The notes under the pieces: model-generated
Told to the model about the DNA's origin: nothing
The model's input: the letters and a program-made list of their open reading frames with translations, nothing else
Databases searched by the model: none
Program-made: the position numbers and the translations under genes
Part shown: positions 1,556 to 7,393 of the stretch, piece after piece
Layout of the letters: each line of letters starts with the position of its first letter
Position numbering within the stretch: the stretch's first letter is position 1
Virus record (IMG/VR): IMGVR_UViG_3300038443_002533
Location: 160,001 to 224,000 of that record
From: a virus
Taxonomy: Duplodnaviria; Caudoviricetes
DNA: 64,000 bases
Direction: 5' to 3' (one strand)

Positions 1556-1822
1556 ATGGCACTTATTCCTACTGGCGTTAACATCATCTACGATCTGTTG
1601 AACGCCCCGAAAGACAAGAACCCGCAAGAGCAGATGGCGGAACTGGGCATCACGTGCCAACGTGTTATCCCCGAACCCATCATCCATCTCTGGCGTTTCA
1701 TCTCTGTTGACCGCGCGACGATTCCCGCTGAGTTGCCCCCGTACCTCAGTCTGGTGTATCTGAACGTCCAGCAATGGAACGAAGAACTCGAAACGCTGAA
1801 GCAACTCAGCCTGAAGAAATAA
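1556..1822 (+). CDS. hypothetical phage protein
   Basis: 88-aa ORF directly after the HAD gene. Confidence 0.75.
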   Translation: MALIPTGVNIIYDLLNAPKDKNPQEQMAELGITCQRVIPEPIIHLWRFISVDRATIPAELPPYLSLVYLNVQQWNEELETLKQLSLKK

Positions 1823-1874
1823 ACGGCGTACCACCCACTTGACCCCGACCGCAGTCAGGACCAAGTGGTGTAAG

Positions 1875-2225
1875 TTACGGGTTGTACGGCACGGCCAAAC
1901 CGTTGCTGACGAGTTGATCGTTCAGGCTGGTCGAAGTATTCGGCAGATACACATCCGCCAGATAGCGACCATACTTCTCCTTCTTGTCCGCGACGGTTTG
2001 GATCACCACCGGGGCGTTAGCCGGCAGTTGTTGCTGAAGCCAAGCGCGTGAATCTTTCCCGGCTTGGGTGCTGACTTCGGGGGCGTTGATACCGTTGAAG
2101 CGGCAGGTCATGTTGATGTGGATATCGCATCCCAAGTCAACATTGAATTCTGCGGTATCGCCATCGATGACGCGAATCACGGTGGCGTTACGGATGTACA
2201 CATCTTTCTTTTTGGCGGCTGTCAT
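1875..2225 (-). CDS. thermonuclease / staphylococcal nuclease (SNase-like) protein
   Basis: VIRVIDGDT, RFNGINAPE, DKKEKYGRYLADV and LVSNGLA motifs; GGAG RBS upstream on minus strand. Confidence 0.9.
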   Translation of the reverse strand: MTAAKKKDVYIRNATVIRVIDGDTAEFNVDLGCDIHINMTCRFNGINAPEVSTQAGKDSRAWLQQQLPANAPVVIQTVADKKEKYGRYLADVYLPNTSTSLNDQLVSNGLAVPYNP

Positions 2226-2273
2226 GGTGGGCTCCTATGCAAAGGGGGTTCATAGCATCCGCGCAGTACCAAT

Positions 2274-2428
2274 GGTCAAGATGGCGAAGTGGAAGACGCA
2301 GCTGACGCTCCGGGTGCAAGTGATCAGTATTTGAACGAGCAGTAGGGTATCTACCGGGTCCATGATCGGGGCGGGTACTCAGATAAACTGTTCTAGTAGA
2401 ACGGAGGTTCGATTCCTTCTCTTGACCA
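2274..2428 (+). ncRNA. tRNA-like RNA A: Leu-type D arm, 8-bp acceptor, enlarged anticodon loop and variable region
   Basis: GGTCAAGA/TCTTGACC-A acceptor; D stem GCG/CGC; GCTGA/TCAGT stem with 18-nt loop; T arm GGAGG-TTCGATT-CCTTC. Confidence 0.7.
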
Positions 2429-2439
2429 CTCAGTTTTAT

Positions 2440-2515
2440 GGGGAAGTCGCCCAGCAGGTTTATTGACCTGACCCACTGTAGGCACGCGCAGGTGCGAATC
2501 CTGCCTTCCCCGCCA
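2440..2515 (+). ncRNA. tRNA-like RNA B lacking an anticodon arm
   Basis: GGGGAAG/CTTCCCC-G-CCA; T arm GCAGG-TGCGAAT-CCTGC; single extended arm GCC...GGC. Confidence 0.7.
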
Positions 2516-2532
2516 CTCAACCGTAGTACGTA

Positions 2533-2689
2533 GGGCATGTAGCTCAGTGATAGAGCACCGTCCATTACCCTTGGGGTCGCTGGTTCGAGTCCAGCCTGGG
2601 GAGTATGCGAATACTCGCTGGTAGCTCAGATGGTTAGAGCACAAGGCTTGCTTAGACGGAGGTCGTGGGTTTGATCCCTGCCATGTCCA
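2533..2689 (+). ncRNA. tRNA-like RNA C: Ala-type outer tRNA with a nested circularly permuted tRNA
   Basis: GGGCATG/CATGTCC-A (G3.U70); CCGTC/GACGG; inner CCTTG/CAAGG, T arm, GCGA-capped acceptor stem and D arm. Confidence 0.8.
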
Positions 2690-2698
2690 TCAAGAATT

Positions 2699-2807
2699 CT
2701 TAATAAGTGGTAAAGTAGATCAACGCGGAGAACCGACGCGCTACAAGGGATACCTCGCTCTGGTTGGTTCACTGGAACGAAGGAGTTTGACCCTGCCACT
2801 TATTAAG
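2699..2807 (+). ncRNA. 109-nt RNA element closed by a 14-bp terminal stem
   Basis: CTTAATAAGTGGTA (2699-2712) pairs with TGCCACTTATTAAG (2794-2807); internal hairpins. Confidence 0.55.
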
Positions 2808-2826
2808 TGTTTTTAAGTTTCACGTA

Positions 2827-2964
2827 GGGCGTTTAGCTCAGTTGGTAGAGCACGGCTAAAGGTGGGCACCGACAAACCCACACCAGCTTAACAGGCTGGG
2901 GCCGAAAGGCAGTCACCATTCATTAAAGCCGAGGTCATGTGTTCGAATCACGTAACGTCCACCA
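2827..2964 (+). ncRNA. tRNA-like RNA E: Ala-type acceptor with a 69-nt structured insert in the anticodon loop
   Basis: GGGCGTT/AACGTCC-A-CCA (G3.U70); canonical D and T arms; CGGCT/AGCCG stem enclosing 2858-2926. Confidence 0.8.
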
Positions 2965-2973
2965 AGTTTCAAA

Positions 2974-3138
2974 GGGTGTGTAGCTCAGCTGGTAGAGCGT
3001 AGTCATGCAAGATTGTGGGGGTTCGAGTCCCCCCATTCTCTCGATTGGGAATGTGGCGGAATTGGTAGACGCGCCGTTCTAACGGACGGTTATCACATTA
3101 GGCTAAGGTCATGGGTTCAAATCCTGTCACATCCACCA
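2974..3138 (+). ncRNA. tRNA-like RNA F: Ala-type outer tRNA with a nested permuted Leu-like tRNA (96-nt insert)
   Basis: GGGTGTG/CACATCC-A-CCA (G3.U70); TAGTC/GGCTA; inner T arm, CATTCTC/GGGAATG capped stem and Leu-type D arm. Confidence 0.8.
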
Positions 3139-3156
3139 AGTTTCAAGCAGTACCGT

Positions 3157-3234
3157 AGGGGAGTCGCCAAGTTGGTCCAAGGCCCCGGATTTTGATTCCG
3201 GCATTCGAAGGTTCGAATCCTTCCTCCTCTGCCA
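3157..3234 (+). tRNA. tRNA-Gln(UUG)
   Basis: Canonical cloverleaf, CCGGA-TTTTGAT-TCCGG, encoded CCA. Confidence 0.93.
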
Positions 3235-3315
3235 GATTTTCGTAGGACTGTTTGATGAACAGAGTAAAATCATCATGGTAGAGATACCACTTACTAGGCA
3301 CTAGGAGAATGTACC

Positions 3316-3780
3316 ATGGCTGGATTTGTGAAATTGATGTCGAATGAAAACCTGCCGGACGCAAGTCCGTTCAAAGGCTATCAGCTGATCAGCTTACCGG
3401 ACGCTGGCAAGGTCGAATTCAAACGTAATGAGCGAGGTCTCGATACGTGTGTGATCTACACCCCGGAGCATGATCCAGAAGAATACCTGATGTACGGCAA
3501 TGCGTATATCCTGAGCGACTCGGGTAAAACCATTGCTTCCCATGGCACCAACGTGCCCTGCGCATTGGAACCGGGTCAAGAGATCAATGACGCTAAGGTG
3601 GCGGTTAGCGCACTGCTTACGCTGGAACCTGACGATCTGAAAGCGGCCCTTTGCCATCTGGTTGCAACTAAGCCGGAAACCATCCGTGTCATGGGTGGCG
3701 TCATAGCCAATTTGGCGCGGGCCGGAAACGAAGCTGCTATTTACTCAATTCGTCCCGCGGTCGAACACATCAGCACGTAA
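3316..3780 (+). CDS. hypothetical phage protein inside the RNA cluster
   Basis: 154-aa ORF with AGGAG RBS. Confidence 0.8.
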   Translation: MAGFVKLMSNENLPDASPFKGYQLISLPDAGKVEFKRNERGLDTCVIYTPEHDPEEYLMYGNAYILSDSGKTIASHGTNVPCALEPGQEINDAKVAVSALLTLEPDDLKAALCHLVATKPETIRVMGGVIANLARAGNEAAIYSIRPAVEHIST

Positions 3781-3791
3781 CACCGATCAAT

Positions 3792-3950
3792 GCCCAAGTC
3801 AGTTATTCCCTCCAACCGATTTCGTCATGAAAGATGGCGCATCTGGCTAAAAGTGAATTCCAAGGCCTGACTAGGGCGCCCCTTTGGCTTTATTAGTTGA
3901 AAGAGGTGTTGTGCCACCACACGCCGTCAATCGAGTAGACTAATAAAGCC
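3792..3950 (+). ncRNA. two adjacent stem-closed RNA elements
   Basis: 3792-3802/3867-3877 (11 bp, one mismatch) and 3886-3897/3939-3950 (12 bp perfect). Confidence 0.45.
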
Positions 3951-3956
3951 TTCCCT

Positions 3957-4032
3957 TCCCCGATAGCTCAGCCGGTAGAGCGACGGACTGTTAATCCGCA
4001 GGTCCCTGGTTCGAATCCAGGTCGGGGAGCCA
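3957..4032 (+). tRNA. tRNA-Asn(GUU)
   Basis: Canonical cloverleaf, ACGGA-CTGTTAA-TCCGC, encoded CCA. Confidence 0.96.
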
Positions 4033-4034
4033 CG

Positions 4035-4893
4035 AACATAAAAGCTGGAATCTAAGCTAGTAGAGTTATCCTTTAACTTGTGCTGGGGTTGTGTTGTTGA
4101 CACTTTACAACTAAGGCTTGGGTTCCGCCTTTTGTGTTTAACTGTCTTTGGGTTTGACTTGGATCGACCGCGAGTCGCAATTACCATACGAGCGATTACG
4201 ATTATCGAAGAACATATTGGCCTGACTCACAAGTCACCTGGTCAAACCCACCCTTTTTCAGAGGACGCACGTGAGGTCGTGCAGGCTTGAGTATCAAGTC
4301 TAGAATGGGCGTGGCTCCTTACACCTACGGGGATACTTAAGGGAGTCGAGGGAAGTGAGATCTCATCAATCTCCACAATGTGGGTGCAACCCACCCCAAT
4401 ACTCGCACACAGGAACGCCGTGGAAATCGGTGAACAACCAGGAGATGAGCCTGGTCCTCTGAGCTATTCTAAATAAAGGTACTGATGAGCCGTGGAAGTC
4501 GGCCCCTGTGCATACAGGCAAGGTTGCAAACCCTTCGAAACATCTCTTGCGCTTCAAGATACAACGAGATGTATACCAATGGACTTAACAGTGGTAGCCG
4601 TTGCTCTTGTCACCTCCGGGGTCTTGATGGGAGTCTAGTAGCGTTTCTGACACGAGCGCTGAAACTGTACGACTGGTTCAACCCTGTCGGCGTCTGTCAA
4701 ACGTCGTGGAGAGAGGATCAGTAAGTTGTACAACGCGTAAGCTGTGCCGCACGCTCCTAGTGAGCGGGTTCAGTGAGAAGCTAGGTCGTGCAAGACCAAG
4801 TTGTGCAGCCATTGTGAGATTGCGTCGGTTTGGCCAGACTGGCGCAGTTGTATCGGTGTGAGGCGGGGGAGGGGTGCAAAACTCTCCCCCGTT
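4035..4893 (+). ncRNA. putative large structured non-coding RNA (~860 nt) downstream of tRNA-Asn
   Basis: No credible ORF; 9-bp long-range stem 4150-4158/4241-4249; many hairpins; ends in a GC-rich hairpin followed by a T-rich tract. Confidence 0.6.
4478..4577 (+). ncRNA. hammerhead ribozyme-like element (type I topology, expanded stem II region)
   Basis: GGTA-CTGATGA...GAAA-CATCTC/GAGATG-TA-TACC: full catalytic core with a GUA cleavage triplet. Confidence 0.65.
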
Positions 4894-4931
4894 TCTTATT
4901 CTTTTTATGCCGTCAAAATCTAGGAGTAACT

Positions 4932-5669
4932 ATGTGGAACTTTTTCAAACGACTGTTTGGCGGTGGTAAACGACAAGAACCCCAGATCGATAAGCCGAGC
5001 GGATCGGCGGGCCGCTGCACACCGTACATGACACCGCTCAGTTCCATCAAACCGAAGTCACCGGAGCCCGTTAAAGAAGATCTGAAGCGCCCCAACGGCC
5101 AATGGGAAGAAACGGAAAACCAACGGCCGCCCGAAAGCGTATGGCAACAAAGCTTGCGGCGCGAAATCAATAAGGTTGAAAAACGTCAACGCTACAATGA
5201 AATTTTGAGCCAAGCTGGGATGGATGTTCGCGCCAGGCGATTCGAAGCCGTGCAACAGTCCGTCGATCGGGTTCGCCAAGAAGCACTCAACTCCGCCACC
5301 CCCCAGATGAGTCGACCGCAATTACCGCCCCATGCGTTGACGGATTCGGCGCGCCTGGATTTGGTCCGAAGAGCAACGCTGAGCACCATGTCCCAGCGCC
5401 CAGGATTACAAGCTGGGCTAGACGCGGTTCAGCGTGACATCGAAGCGCGCCGTCGACAGAACGAAGAAGACGAACGTCGTCGCCGTGAAGCCGATGATGA
5501 AGACCGTCGCCGTCGTAACAACGATGACACATTGAATTTGTTGGTAGGCTTATCCTCGATAATTTCTGACACCGTATCCTCATCGTCTGATTCCAGCCCC
5601 AGCTCGGATCCGTTCAGCGGCGGCGGTGGTTCCTTTGACGGCGGTGGTGCTTCTGGAGATTGGTCATGA
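4932..5669 (+). CDS. hypothetical protein with Ser/Gly-rich C-terminal tail
   Basis: AGGAG RBS before ATG 4932; ends FSGGGGSFDGGGASGDWS. Confidence 0.85.
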   Translation: MWNFFKRLFGGGKRQEPQIDKPSGSAGRCTPYMTPLSSIKPKSPEPVKEDLKRPNGQWEETENQRPPESVWQQSLRREINKVEKRQRYNEILSQAGMDVRARRFEAVQQSVDRVRQEALNSATPQMSRPQLPPHALTDSARLDLVRRATLSTMSQRPGLQAGLDAVQRDIEARRRQNEEDERRRREADDEDRRRRNNDDTLNLLVGLSSIISDTVSSSSDSSPSSDPFSGGGGSFDGGGASGDWS

Positions 5670-6739: not shown

Positions 6740-6823
6740 TAGTATGTAGTACGTAGTAGGTAGTGCATGATTTATCGGTGGAGATGGTGGGATCGAAAAC
6801 TCCATTCACCATCGAGAAAAATC

Positions 6824-7393
6824 ATGAAGAAAATTGCATCTTTGTTTCAACGTAACTATGACGGCGATCGTCAAGTGCGTAATGAAGTCGTTCCGGGTTC
6901 GGAATGGGTAATCCACGGCGAAGGGTATGCGACCCGTAAATGGGATGGCATGGCTATTAAGCTGGAGAACGCTCAGTTCTTTAAGCGTTATGATGCGAAG
7001 GCTGGCAGAACACCGCCCCCTGAATTCATTCCTGCCCAACCGGCGCCTGATCCACAAACTGGCCACTGGCCTGGTTGGGTGCCGTTGCAAGGGAAAGAAC
7101 TCAATCGCGTAGTAGCGGCGTATCAAGACAGCGGCATCACGGAAGACGGCACATTCGAATTCTGTGGACCGACGATTGGTACCCGCCATGGCGCCAACCC
7201 TGAACGGCTCACCAAGCACATCCTGGTGCCCCACGGGCAAGACATCCTGGCCGACTGTCCGCGTGACTTCGATGGGCTCAAAGCCTATCTGGCGAATGCG
7301 GATATCGAAGGGGTGGTGTGGTGGCATCCGGATGGTCGTAAGGTCAAGATCAAAGCAGCTGATTTTGGCCTCGTCAGGCACGCAGTAATCTGA
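6824..7393 (+). CDS. ATP-dependent RNA ligase (RLIG1/C12orf29, DUF5565-like)
   Basis: Ligase motifs RKWDG (I), EFCG (III), EGVVW (IV), KIK (V); HILVPHG motif. Confidence 0.7.
   Translation: MKKIASLFQRNYDGDRQVRNEVVPGSEWVIHGEGYATRKWDGMAIKLENAQFFKRYDAKAGRTPPPEFIPAQPAPDPQTGHWPGWVPLQGKELNRVVAAYQDSGITEDGTFEFCGPTIGTRHGANPERLTKHILVPHGQDILADCPRDFDGLKAYLANADIEGVVWWHPDGRKVKIKAADFGLVRHAVI

Follow-up and report, generated by a model that had tools for sequence, protein, structure and literature searches.

The stretch analysed here, which we call the window, comprises 64,000 nucleotides (160001-224000) of the virus record IMGVR_UViG_3300038443_002533, which is 272,470 bp long, carries direct terminal repeats and is rated complete. 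The phage DNA probably comes from a rhizosphere metagenome, the sole public run containing the whole stretch. Among named phages, the Burkholderia and Ralstonia jumbo phages FLC9, FLC4-3B and BcepSaruman come closest to it by DNA. Between about 2270 and 4900 the window is poor in open reading frames (ORFs). This part holds several tRNA-like genes, one ORF of 154 aa and two canonical tRNAs (Gln at 3157, Asn at 3957), the only two that ARAGORN reports in the whole genome. Here lies element C, the subject of this work, 160 nt on the + strand (2533-2692). The array is flanked by an SNase-family nuclease (1875-2225, minus strand) and an RNA ligase (6767-7393; phrog_14301, E 1e-71; Pfam RLIG1). Further on, the window encodes a protein of the CCA-adding-enzyme family (26067-27329, 420 aa, 64.6 bits), despite the phage having just two canonical tRNAs. 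Genes for TROVE/Ro60, SmpB or RtcB were not found in the complete genome. Within 1800-5000 we found no sigma-70-like promoter and a single terminator-like hairpin, at 4860-4895. The RNA array, the 154-aa ORF and a structured region of about 860 nt may form one transcription unit.

Read along the strand, element C looks like two broken tRNAs in tandem. The sequence-only reading had proposed that the halves instead pair across one another, and every stem it named was found in its place (Table 1). Paired crosswise, the outer acceptor forms seven pairs of seven, the outer and inner anticodon stems five of five each, and the inner acceptor six of seven, with one G.G mismatch at 3:70. Paired linearly, the two acceptors of the same units form only 2/7 and 3/7 pairs and the two anticodon stems 2/5 and 1/5. 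With the base composition found here, the probability of all 17 prescribed pairs forming is about 2e-7. The capped hairpin said to close the inner acceptor was recovered as well. An assembly artefact or chimera at this place is unlikely, since an independent soil-metagenome contig from an unrelated study covers 2525-2781 without a break and with six differences.

Table 1. Parts of element C, in order along the window, and the eight further elements with the same plan
Feature	Position	Strand	Observation
Outer acceptor, 5' strand, GGGCATG	2533-2539	+	7/7 pairs with 2682-2688, including G3.U70; identical in the G002 orthologue
Linker TA, outer acceptor 5' strand to outer D arm		+	segmentation
Outer D arm, GCTC-AGTGATA-GAGC	2542-2556	+	4/4 pairs; G18 A19; G19 in the G002 orthologue
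Linker A, outer D arm to outer anticodon stem		+	segmentation
Outer anticodon stem, 5' strand, CCGTC	2558-2562	+	5/5 pairs with 2655-2659
Junction J1, CATTAC	2563-2568	+	unpaired; 3-20 nt in homologues, sequence not conserved
Inner anticodon-type stem, 3' strand, CCTTG	2569-2573	+	5/5 pairs with 2642-2646
Variable segment GGGTC of the inner unit, between CCTTG and inner T arm		+	segmentation
Inner T arm, GCTGG-TTCGAGT-CCAGC	2579-2595	+	5/5 pairs; canonical T loop
Inner acceptor as GNRA-capped 11-bp hairpin, CTGGGGA+GTAT / GCGA / ATAC+TCGCTGG	2596-2621	+	10/11 pairs with changes on both sides among family members
Cap, GTAT-GCGA-ATAC	2603-2614	+	extends the inner acceptor CTGGGGA/TCGCTGG
Linker TA, inner acceptor 5' strand to inner D arm		+	segmentation
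Inner D arm, GCTC-AGATGGTTA-GAGC	2624-2640	+	4/4 pairs; G18 G19; loop identical in L007c
Linker A, inner D arm to inner anticodon stem 5' strand		+	segmentation
Inner anticodon-type stem, 5' strand, CAAGG	2642-2646	+	pairs with 2569-2573
Junction J2, CTTGCTTA	2647-2654	+	unpaired; 4-27 nt in nested homologues
Outer anticodon stem, 3' strand, GACGG	2655-2659	+	pairs with 2558-2562
Variable segment AGGTC of the outer unit, before outer T arm		+	segmentation
Outer T arm, GTGGG-TTTGATC-CCTGC	2665-2681	+	5/5 pairs; U56 opposite A19
Outer acceptor, 3' strand, CATGTCC, then A73, then TCA, not CCA	2682-2692	+	read from the sequence; G002 orthologue ends A-CCA
L008x	L008 5325-5476		inner core identical to element C over ~50 nt; outer acceptor and outer T arm wholly different
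L007 element	L007 3387-3558		full plan; every stem of different sequence
L007 element	L007 3209-3368		full plan; every stem of different sequence
L007 element	L007 3060-3189		inner unit cut down to T arm, 7-bp hairpin and stemless TGGTTAA D-loop
G002C	L037 1501-1621		inner unit cut down to T arm, 7-bp hairpin and stemless TGGTTAA D-loop
Element F (winF)	window 2974-3138		inner acceptor of 7 bp, then Leu-type D arm
F-type member of FLC9	L010 4212-4362 (LC667451 129228-129377, minus strand)		inner acceptor of 7 bp, then Leu-type D arm
L007 element	L007 3580-3744		two complete cloverleaves with acceptor strands exchanged

Homologous arrays were reached by protein queries. With the 154-aa array protein we reached L007 (322 kb) and L008 (226 kb), two contigs of related jumbo phages, and with an SNF2 helicase eleven more loci. 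One of these belongs to G002 (271 kb, 78% identity), which is the closest of the complete genomes. The upstream 167-aa protein, used as a query, returned no relatives. We read these arrays by eye and then segmented them by script. The architecture of element C is found in eight further elements, belonging to the window's own phage, to the IMG/VR phages G002, G006 and G012, and to the cultured Burkholderia phage FLC9. Their common plan is an alanine-type frame in which a T arm, a closed acceptor hairpin and a D arm or D-loop stand in place of the anticodon loop. Since G002C has exactly the outer stems of element C (GGGCATG/CATGTCC and CCGTC/GACGG), we take it as the orthologue of the outer frame. 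Exact-pattern scans of IMG/VR and of the JGI metagenomes with the cap and with the outer 5' half returned only contigs that were already known.

The members differ in how clearly they call for the nested reading. It is clearly better in those built like element C (C-type), where linear pairing of the acceptors reaches 1-3/7. Linear pairing is nearly as good (5-6/7) in those built like element F (F-type) and in the last of the L007 elements (a to d), which are ambiguous for this reason. In L008x the identical stem carries the tetraloop GAAG where element C has GCGA, and the inner acceptors of the F-type members (winF and FLC9) are closed by TCGATT or UUCG. Of the two cloverleaves of L007:3580-3744, the first type is class I-like and the other class II with a long variable arm. 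They have an outer pair GGGAGTT/AACGTCC (6/7, with G3.U70) and an inner TATCTCC-GTTA-GGAGGTA (7/7), against 5/7 each when read linearly, and this RNA might alternate between a pair of tRNAs and a single nested fold. Conserved irregularities also occur in the 3' strands of the acceptors: three L007 elements (L007:3060-3558) have a bulged G between 68 and 69 (ATC[G]CTCC, AGC[G]CCCT), and two FLC9 elements (L010:4340-4505) have two extra C between T stem and acceptor (CC-TTGCGG).

We built a covariance model, R1, from four members and re-aligned eight with it. Standard pairs fill 95.7% of the cells of this alignment, against 71.6% in shuffles, and 31 of its 46 pairs change on both sides, none of 500 shuffles being as high on any of five measures; these values belong to related sequences in an alignment fitted to the model, half of whose rows (4/8) are the model's seeds. 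The segmentation by hand made no use of the model and agrees with this picture. When the 3' partners are slid by one to three columns, only 34-47% of cells pair and the covariation score falls from 0.63 to 0.09-0.14. Changes on both sides affect five of the seven pairs of the outer acceptor, four of the five of the outer anticodon stem (CTGTC/GACAG, CTGCC/GGCAG and TCCTC/GGGGA in homologues), three of the five of the inner T arm, and ten of the eleven of the inner acceptor with its cap. Of these helices, all but the inner T arm are specific to the nested reading. The latter hairpin, with its cap, is paired in 97% of cells and its loops include the tetraloops GCGA, GAAG and UUCG. In all four C-type members the helix runs 4 bp past the 7-bp acceptor, N-1 pairing with N73, and the extension covaries (GTAT/ATAC, GTGT/ACGT, GTAA/TTAC). 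Single comparisons tell the same: the inner anticodon stem CAAGG/CCTTG of element C becomes CAATC/GATTG in L007c by two compensated pairs, and the outer T arm of G002C (TTGGG-TTCAATT-CCTGA) is compensated at 49:65, U-A replacing the G-C of element C. The covariation check supported the suspicion that the topology is under selection, the nested pairing being kept with compensatory changes in related phages.

Pairing of this kind might have been inherited. Gene conversion of a central block between tandem tRNA pairs would supply the nested complementarity for free, and element C might then be a non-functional scar, left by recombination or gene conversion between tandem tRNA genes, whose cross-complementarity is a legacy of formerly intact tRNAs and was never selected. 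The modules do look shuffled, since the outer frame of element C corresponds to that of G002C and its inner core to that of L008x and to the T arm of L007a, and the F-type members and L007d pair almost equally well linearly. Arrays also differ in composition between near strains. In two root RNA libraries there are contigs of a close strain, about 97% identical to the window across 2271-2548, whose array has the first 16 nt of element C, then about 25 other letters, and then resumes at about 3206. Yet the helical extension and the tetraloop on the inner acceptor, features that would not be expected of a spacer between tRNAs, could not be inherited from the spacer of tandem genes, and both covary. 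Together with the compensated changes between orthologues (19:56 and 49:65 between element C and G002C, the inner anticodon stem between element C and L007c) and with D and T loops that are all canonical although the flanking proteins are only ~60-80% identical, this argues for selection acting later and disfavours inherited cross-complementarity. We consider such a scar very improbable.

The elbow provides one of these compensated changes. The outer loops of element C, AGTGATA in the D arm and TTTGATC in the T arm, place A19 opposite U56, which the sequence-only reading had taken as a replacement of the usual G19-C56. The orthologous frame of G002 has AGTGGTA and TTCAATT, that is G19-C56, and relative to it A19-U56 is a genuine double substitution. 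Five other frames have G19-C56, and the loops AGCCTGTTA and TTAAAAT of L007a are probably to be read as G18 and U19-A56. The inner unit keeps G19 and C56, as had been noted, in its loops AGATGGTTA and TTCGAGT. The elbow nucleotides are present in both domains, as G18, A19 and U56 in the outer one and as G18, G19 and C56 in the inner one.

The inner unit had been described as a circularly permuted tRNA. The gene order of element C agrees with this description, but across the family only the T arm, the closed acceptor hairpin and the D arm, or a GG-containing D-loop, are constant. The inner anticodon stem occurs in three members only and is absent from L008x, G002C and L007a. The point at which the inner unit opens varies as well: it lies in the anticodon loop in element C, behind the anticodon hairpin in winF and ahead of this hairpin in FLC9. 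The conserved unit is a second tRNA elbow with its minihelix and not a complete permuted tRNA. The junction loops, whose 6+8 = 14 nt had been read as the sum of two 7-nt anticodon loops, fared less well: the junctions vary among homologues (8+17, 7+4 and 5+11 nt in the other C-type members, 20+7 in FLC9, 12+27 in winF), and the sum is therefore a coincidence. The complete permuted tRNA and the two 7-nt loops are both traits of this copy and not of the family. The UGC inside J2 is a possible relic of an alanine anticodon loop.

These junctions bear on whether element C is the precursor of spliced tRNAs, its insert being excised and its exons joined by the phage nuclease and RNA ligase into one or perhaps two working tRNAs. 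Both enzymes flank the array, and ARAGORN, when introns are allowed, calls the neighbouring elements A, E and F intron-bearing tRNAs, but with the same option it makes no call at C. Five nucleotides of J2 and two of J1 would join into a canonical alanine loop, CTTGCAC, for the inner unit; the outer unit obtains no canonical loop from any crossover, which upholds the earlier statement that no crossover yields two fully canonical loops. A bulge-helix-bulge motif is absent too, and nothing indicates splicing into two working tRNAs. Besides, neither the lengths nor the sequences of the junctions are conserved, and the insert is itself selected for a tRNA-like fold. A group I intron would need a longer insert than this one. 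The L008 locus lacks the SNase gene, and the genome lacks RtcB. We therefore regard splicing as very unlikely indeed.

The capped hairpin matters for another possibility, in which RNase P and 3' processing open the inner cap and leave two strand-swapped tRNA pieces, held together by about 24 intermolecular base pairs, as a double-headed complex with two CCA-completed acceptor ends. There is a precedent in the YrlA of M. smegmatis, which has a 7-bp acceptor and is cut in vivo by RNase P and completed with CCA, giving two fragments (PMC4201824). The inner acceptors of winF, FLC9 and G002C are exactly 7 bp long with a small closing loop, and the phage encodes a CCA-adding enzyme though it has just two canonical tRNAs. 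Yet the four C-type helices all extend 4 bp further, with N-1 pairing N73, and the covariation of this extension suggests that the hairpin is selected to stay closed and would be a poor site for RNase P. The inner acceptor also has the G.G mismatch at 3:70 and no encoded CCA. Altogether this makes cleavage into two pieces unlikely.

The outer end of element C holds the whole alanine identity set, G1-C72, G2-C71, G3.U70 and A73. So do elements E and F of the window, both G002 elements and L007 b and c; L007d has it except for C at 73. Among the eleven outer frames read, eight retain G3.U70 while positions 4-7 vary, the pair being missing in L007a, the F-type member of FLC9 and L008x. Alanyl-tRNA synthetase (AlaRS) reads the acceptor stem only, and an RNA such as element C, which lacks an anticodon, could thus still be charged by it. 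Before charging, the encoded UCA tail would require repair to CCA.

Comparison of the sequences established nested pairing, its compensatory conservation and, as predicted from the loops, a D-loop/T-loop elbow pair in both domains. We propose that element C is a stable, non-decoding mimic of tRNA with two elbows on an alanine-type frame, probably alanine-accepting, which acts via proteins that recognise the body of tRNAs; we would give this reading a probability of about 0.6. Element C would be transcribed with the phage's array of tRNA-like genes. Its outer ends would mature as those of a tRNA do, with RNase P acting on the 5' end and trimming and CCA addition on the 3' end, where the phage's own CCA-adding enzyme would complete the encoded UCA tail. 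The RNA would then fold into two L-shaped domains joined via their anticodon stems, and AlaRS would charge its outer end. It would not serve as an adaptor in translation. Since it cannot pair with a codon, its action would go through proteins binding the tRNA body, which it might occupy or recruit as a decoy or adaptor in a conflict over tRNAs. Candidate targets for a decoy are host tRNA-cleaving defence nucleases or tRNA-processing enzymes. A bolder version has the transcript mature into a double-headed tRNA, two L bodies with both acceptor ends freed by RNase P and CCA addition and with alanine on at least one end, which then acts as a dedicated non-ribosomal donor of aminoacyl groups or as a plug mimicking two neighbouring ribosome-bound tRNAs. 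We find this version improbable.

Several observations weigh against the proposed mimic, in addition to the dependence of the alignment on its model given above. The stability of element C is ordinary: the nested fold has -54.0 kcal/mol, against -55.9 for the minimum-free-energy fold, which shares with it the outer acceptor, the outer D arm, the inner T arm and the inner acceptor hairpin, and minimum-free-energy folding compared with shuffles gives z = -0.3, so that the support comes from comparison with other phages and not from energy. R1 also matches plain and tandem tRNAs, at up to 82 bits, and its weak members cannot be separated by the model alone; scores below ~90 bits were judged by eye. 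On inspection, the 82-bit match in FLC9 (L010 5284-5449) was a tRNA-His followed by a tRNA-Phe, and matches in G008 and in G002 (2226-2384) were tandem tRNAs, and we rejected them as nested elements. In L007b, A19 stands opposite C56, uncompensated, and compensation at the elbow is thus not universal. Imperfect outer acceptors (two mismatches in L008x, the bulged G of L007 a-c, the two extra bases of FLC9) make it unlikely that aminoacylation is universal. The RNA-library contigs come from a related strain with a different array and may be DNA, and they carry no word on the transcription or processing of element C. Finally, we found no conserved protein partner for the putative decoy or adaptor. 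The 154-aa array protein, whose family matches are uninformative, is present in the window's phage, L007 and L008; we rejected it as a partner because it is absent from G002, FLC9, FLC4-3B, BcepSaruman and G008.

The tRNA gene clusters of phages are usually taken for simple aids to codon usage or for a reserve against defences that cleave tRNAs. The phage studied here, of 272 kb, has only two working tRNAs and in addition a conserved array of tRNA-shaped RNAs unable to decode. Several of these keep exactly what is recognised by enzymes indifferent to the anticodon (RNase P, the CCA enzyme, AlaRS). A natural graft of a second tRNA elbow on a tRNA frame is a new building plan for tRNA mimicry, and it forms a structural link between tRNAs and the tRNA-like Y RNAs. 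A double-headed tRNA, if true, would establish a new class of RNA effectors that phages make from pieces of tRNA. The presence of the plan in the cultured phage FLC9 provides a testable object for the role of anticodon-less tRNA look-alikes in infection.

The rest of the array is also rich in unusual tRNA-like genes. Element A (2274-2432) measures about 155 nt and combines a Leu-type D arm with a large expansion. Three phages share it as a conserved element (also at L008:5487-5645 and L037:1330-1480), and ARAGORN, with introns allowed, calls it a tRNA-Leu with a 73-nt intron. Element E (2827-2964) has an alanine-type frame with an insert unlike tRNA and an orthologue in G002 (L037:1019-1148). 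The two share a covarying hairpin (CCAGC-TTAACAG-GCTGG and CCGGC-TTAATA-GCCGG) and a conserved GCC-GAAA-GGC that fits the YrlA motif GNCGAAN0-1G (2901), perhaps by chance. Frames with other hairpin inserts occur in FLC9 (L010 4388-4505) and in FLC4-3B (L026 1501-1612, minus strand). GenBank annotates no RNA genes in L010:3769-5450 of FLC9 (LC667451), where we read about ten tRNAs and tRNA-like genes, one of them under the coding sequence of a 58-aa "hypothetical protein" (5042-5215). The arrays of G002 (L037:1160-1300) and L008 (5660-5790) have in common a non-coding stretch of about 130 nt, starting AAGAGCACAAACCC, that is not obviously present in the window. The spacers before most L007 and FLC9 elements carry the words GTAGTA and/or GTTTCA. 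In the window YGTAGTA has 10 matches where 4.6 are expected, a number reached by two of 100 shuffles, and we did not count it as enriched.

How does element C compare with known RNAs? Canonical D and T arms with their elbow nucleotides (G18, the 19:56 pair, T54-Psi55-C56) are found in both of its domains. Still, it is no canonical tRNA (RF00005), since as contiguous cloverleaves its linear acceptors pair just 2/7 and 3/7, and no crossover gives the outer unit a 7-nt anticodon loop with U33 and a purine at 37. ARAGORN reports no tRNA at C, with or without introns, and an Rfam search at gathering thresholds has no match there; the Rfam tRNA model aligns partially (positions 7-64), at 27.1 and 18.4 bits where the cut-off is 29. 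Our full-text literature searches on nested or permuted tRNAs in phages returned no description of a tRNA frame bearing the top half of a second tRNA.

Circularly permuted tRNA genes are known in Cyanidioschyzon merolae and some archaea, where a bulge-helix-bulge motif and a circular intermediate lead to normal decoding tRNAs. As in these genes, the 3' half of the inner unit precedes its 5' half and a short linker joins the acceptor strands, in the order T arm, acceptor 3' strand, cap, acceptor 5' strand, D arm. Element C differs by being embedded in another tRNA, in a phage of bacteria. The only 4-bp helices between its strands are the two stems themselves, a bulge-helix-bulge motif is absent, and the canonical loop that joining could give is restricted to the inner unit and is not conserved.

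There is a close likeness to YrlA (RF02553), which occurs in bacteria and mycobacteriophages, is recognised by tRNA enzymes and carries tRNA modifications (Chen et al. 2014, PMC4201824). With a 7-bp acceptor, YrlA is a substrate of RNase P and is extended with CCA (PMC4201824). The order of modules is the same: a stem, a T arm, an acceptor-like closed hairpin, a D arm and the stem again, with canonical T and D loops. This raises the question of whether element C is itself a Y RNA for the Ro60 (Rsr) of the host, its outer tRNA frame standing in for the Ro-binding helix. The inner module indeed has the wiring of YrlA, and the Rfam model aligns end to end (model positions 1-114 over 2558-2662, with the pairs verified). 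However, the score of 31.3 bits (E 8e-6 within the genome) lies far under the gathering cut-off of 69 bits, and of 14 control genomes 13 also give sub-threshold matches (E up to 10). The family's own authors caution that dimeric tRNAs cause false matches (PMC4201824). The Ro60-contact motif GNCGAAN0-1G, which marks YrlA close to its 5' end, was not found by a regular-expression search of 2533-2692. Published YrlAs sit within 4 kb of a Ro60 gene (PMC4201824), a location on the same strand being part of the definition, and the phage has no such gene. We rejected membership in YrlA on score, gene and motif, and see only a very small chance that a host Ro60 is the partner. In YrlA the Ro60-binding helix closes the module, whereas in element C this is done by the anticodon stem belonging to a second, complete tRNA body.

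In tmRNA a large insert takes the place of the anticodon arm, and its two-piece form arises from permuted genes. Element C resembles it in the alanine-type acceptor (G3.U70, A73) and the T arm on an RNA that does not decode by an anticodon. It differs in that the outer frame retains its whole D arm and an anticodon stem and has neither pseudoknots nor a convincing tag frame. We do not consider it a tmRNA, given the complete D arm where tmRNA has a stemless D-loop, the absence of a tmRNA call by ARAGORN and the lack of SmpB in the phage. Species 1 and 2 of phage T4 (rnaC and rnaD) are likewise small stable RNAs of unexplained function in a phage tRNA cluster, and rnaC ends in a canonical T arm and has termini that pair. 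They have no second elbow, however, their inserts are plain hairpins and neither matches R1. A comparable design was made in the laboratory: Ponchon and Dardel reportedly engineered tRNA scaffolds in which a foreign RNA replaces the anticodon loop. There too, a module is grafted on the anticodon stem and borrows the processing and stability of tRNA, but element C is natural and conserved, and its cargo is the top half of a tRNA.

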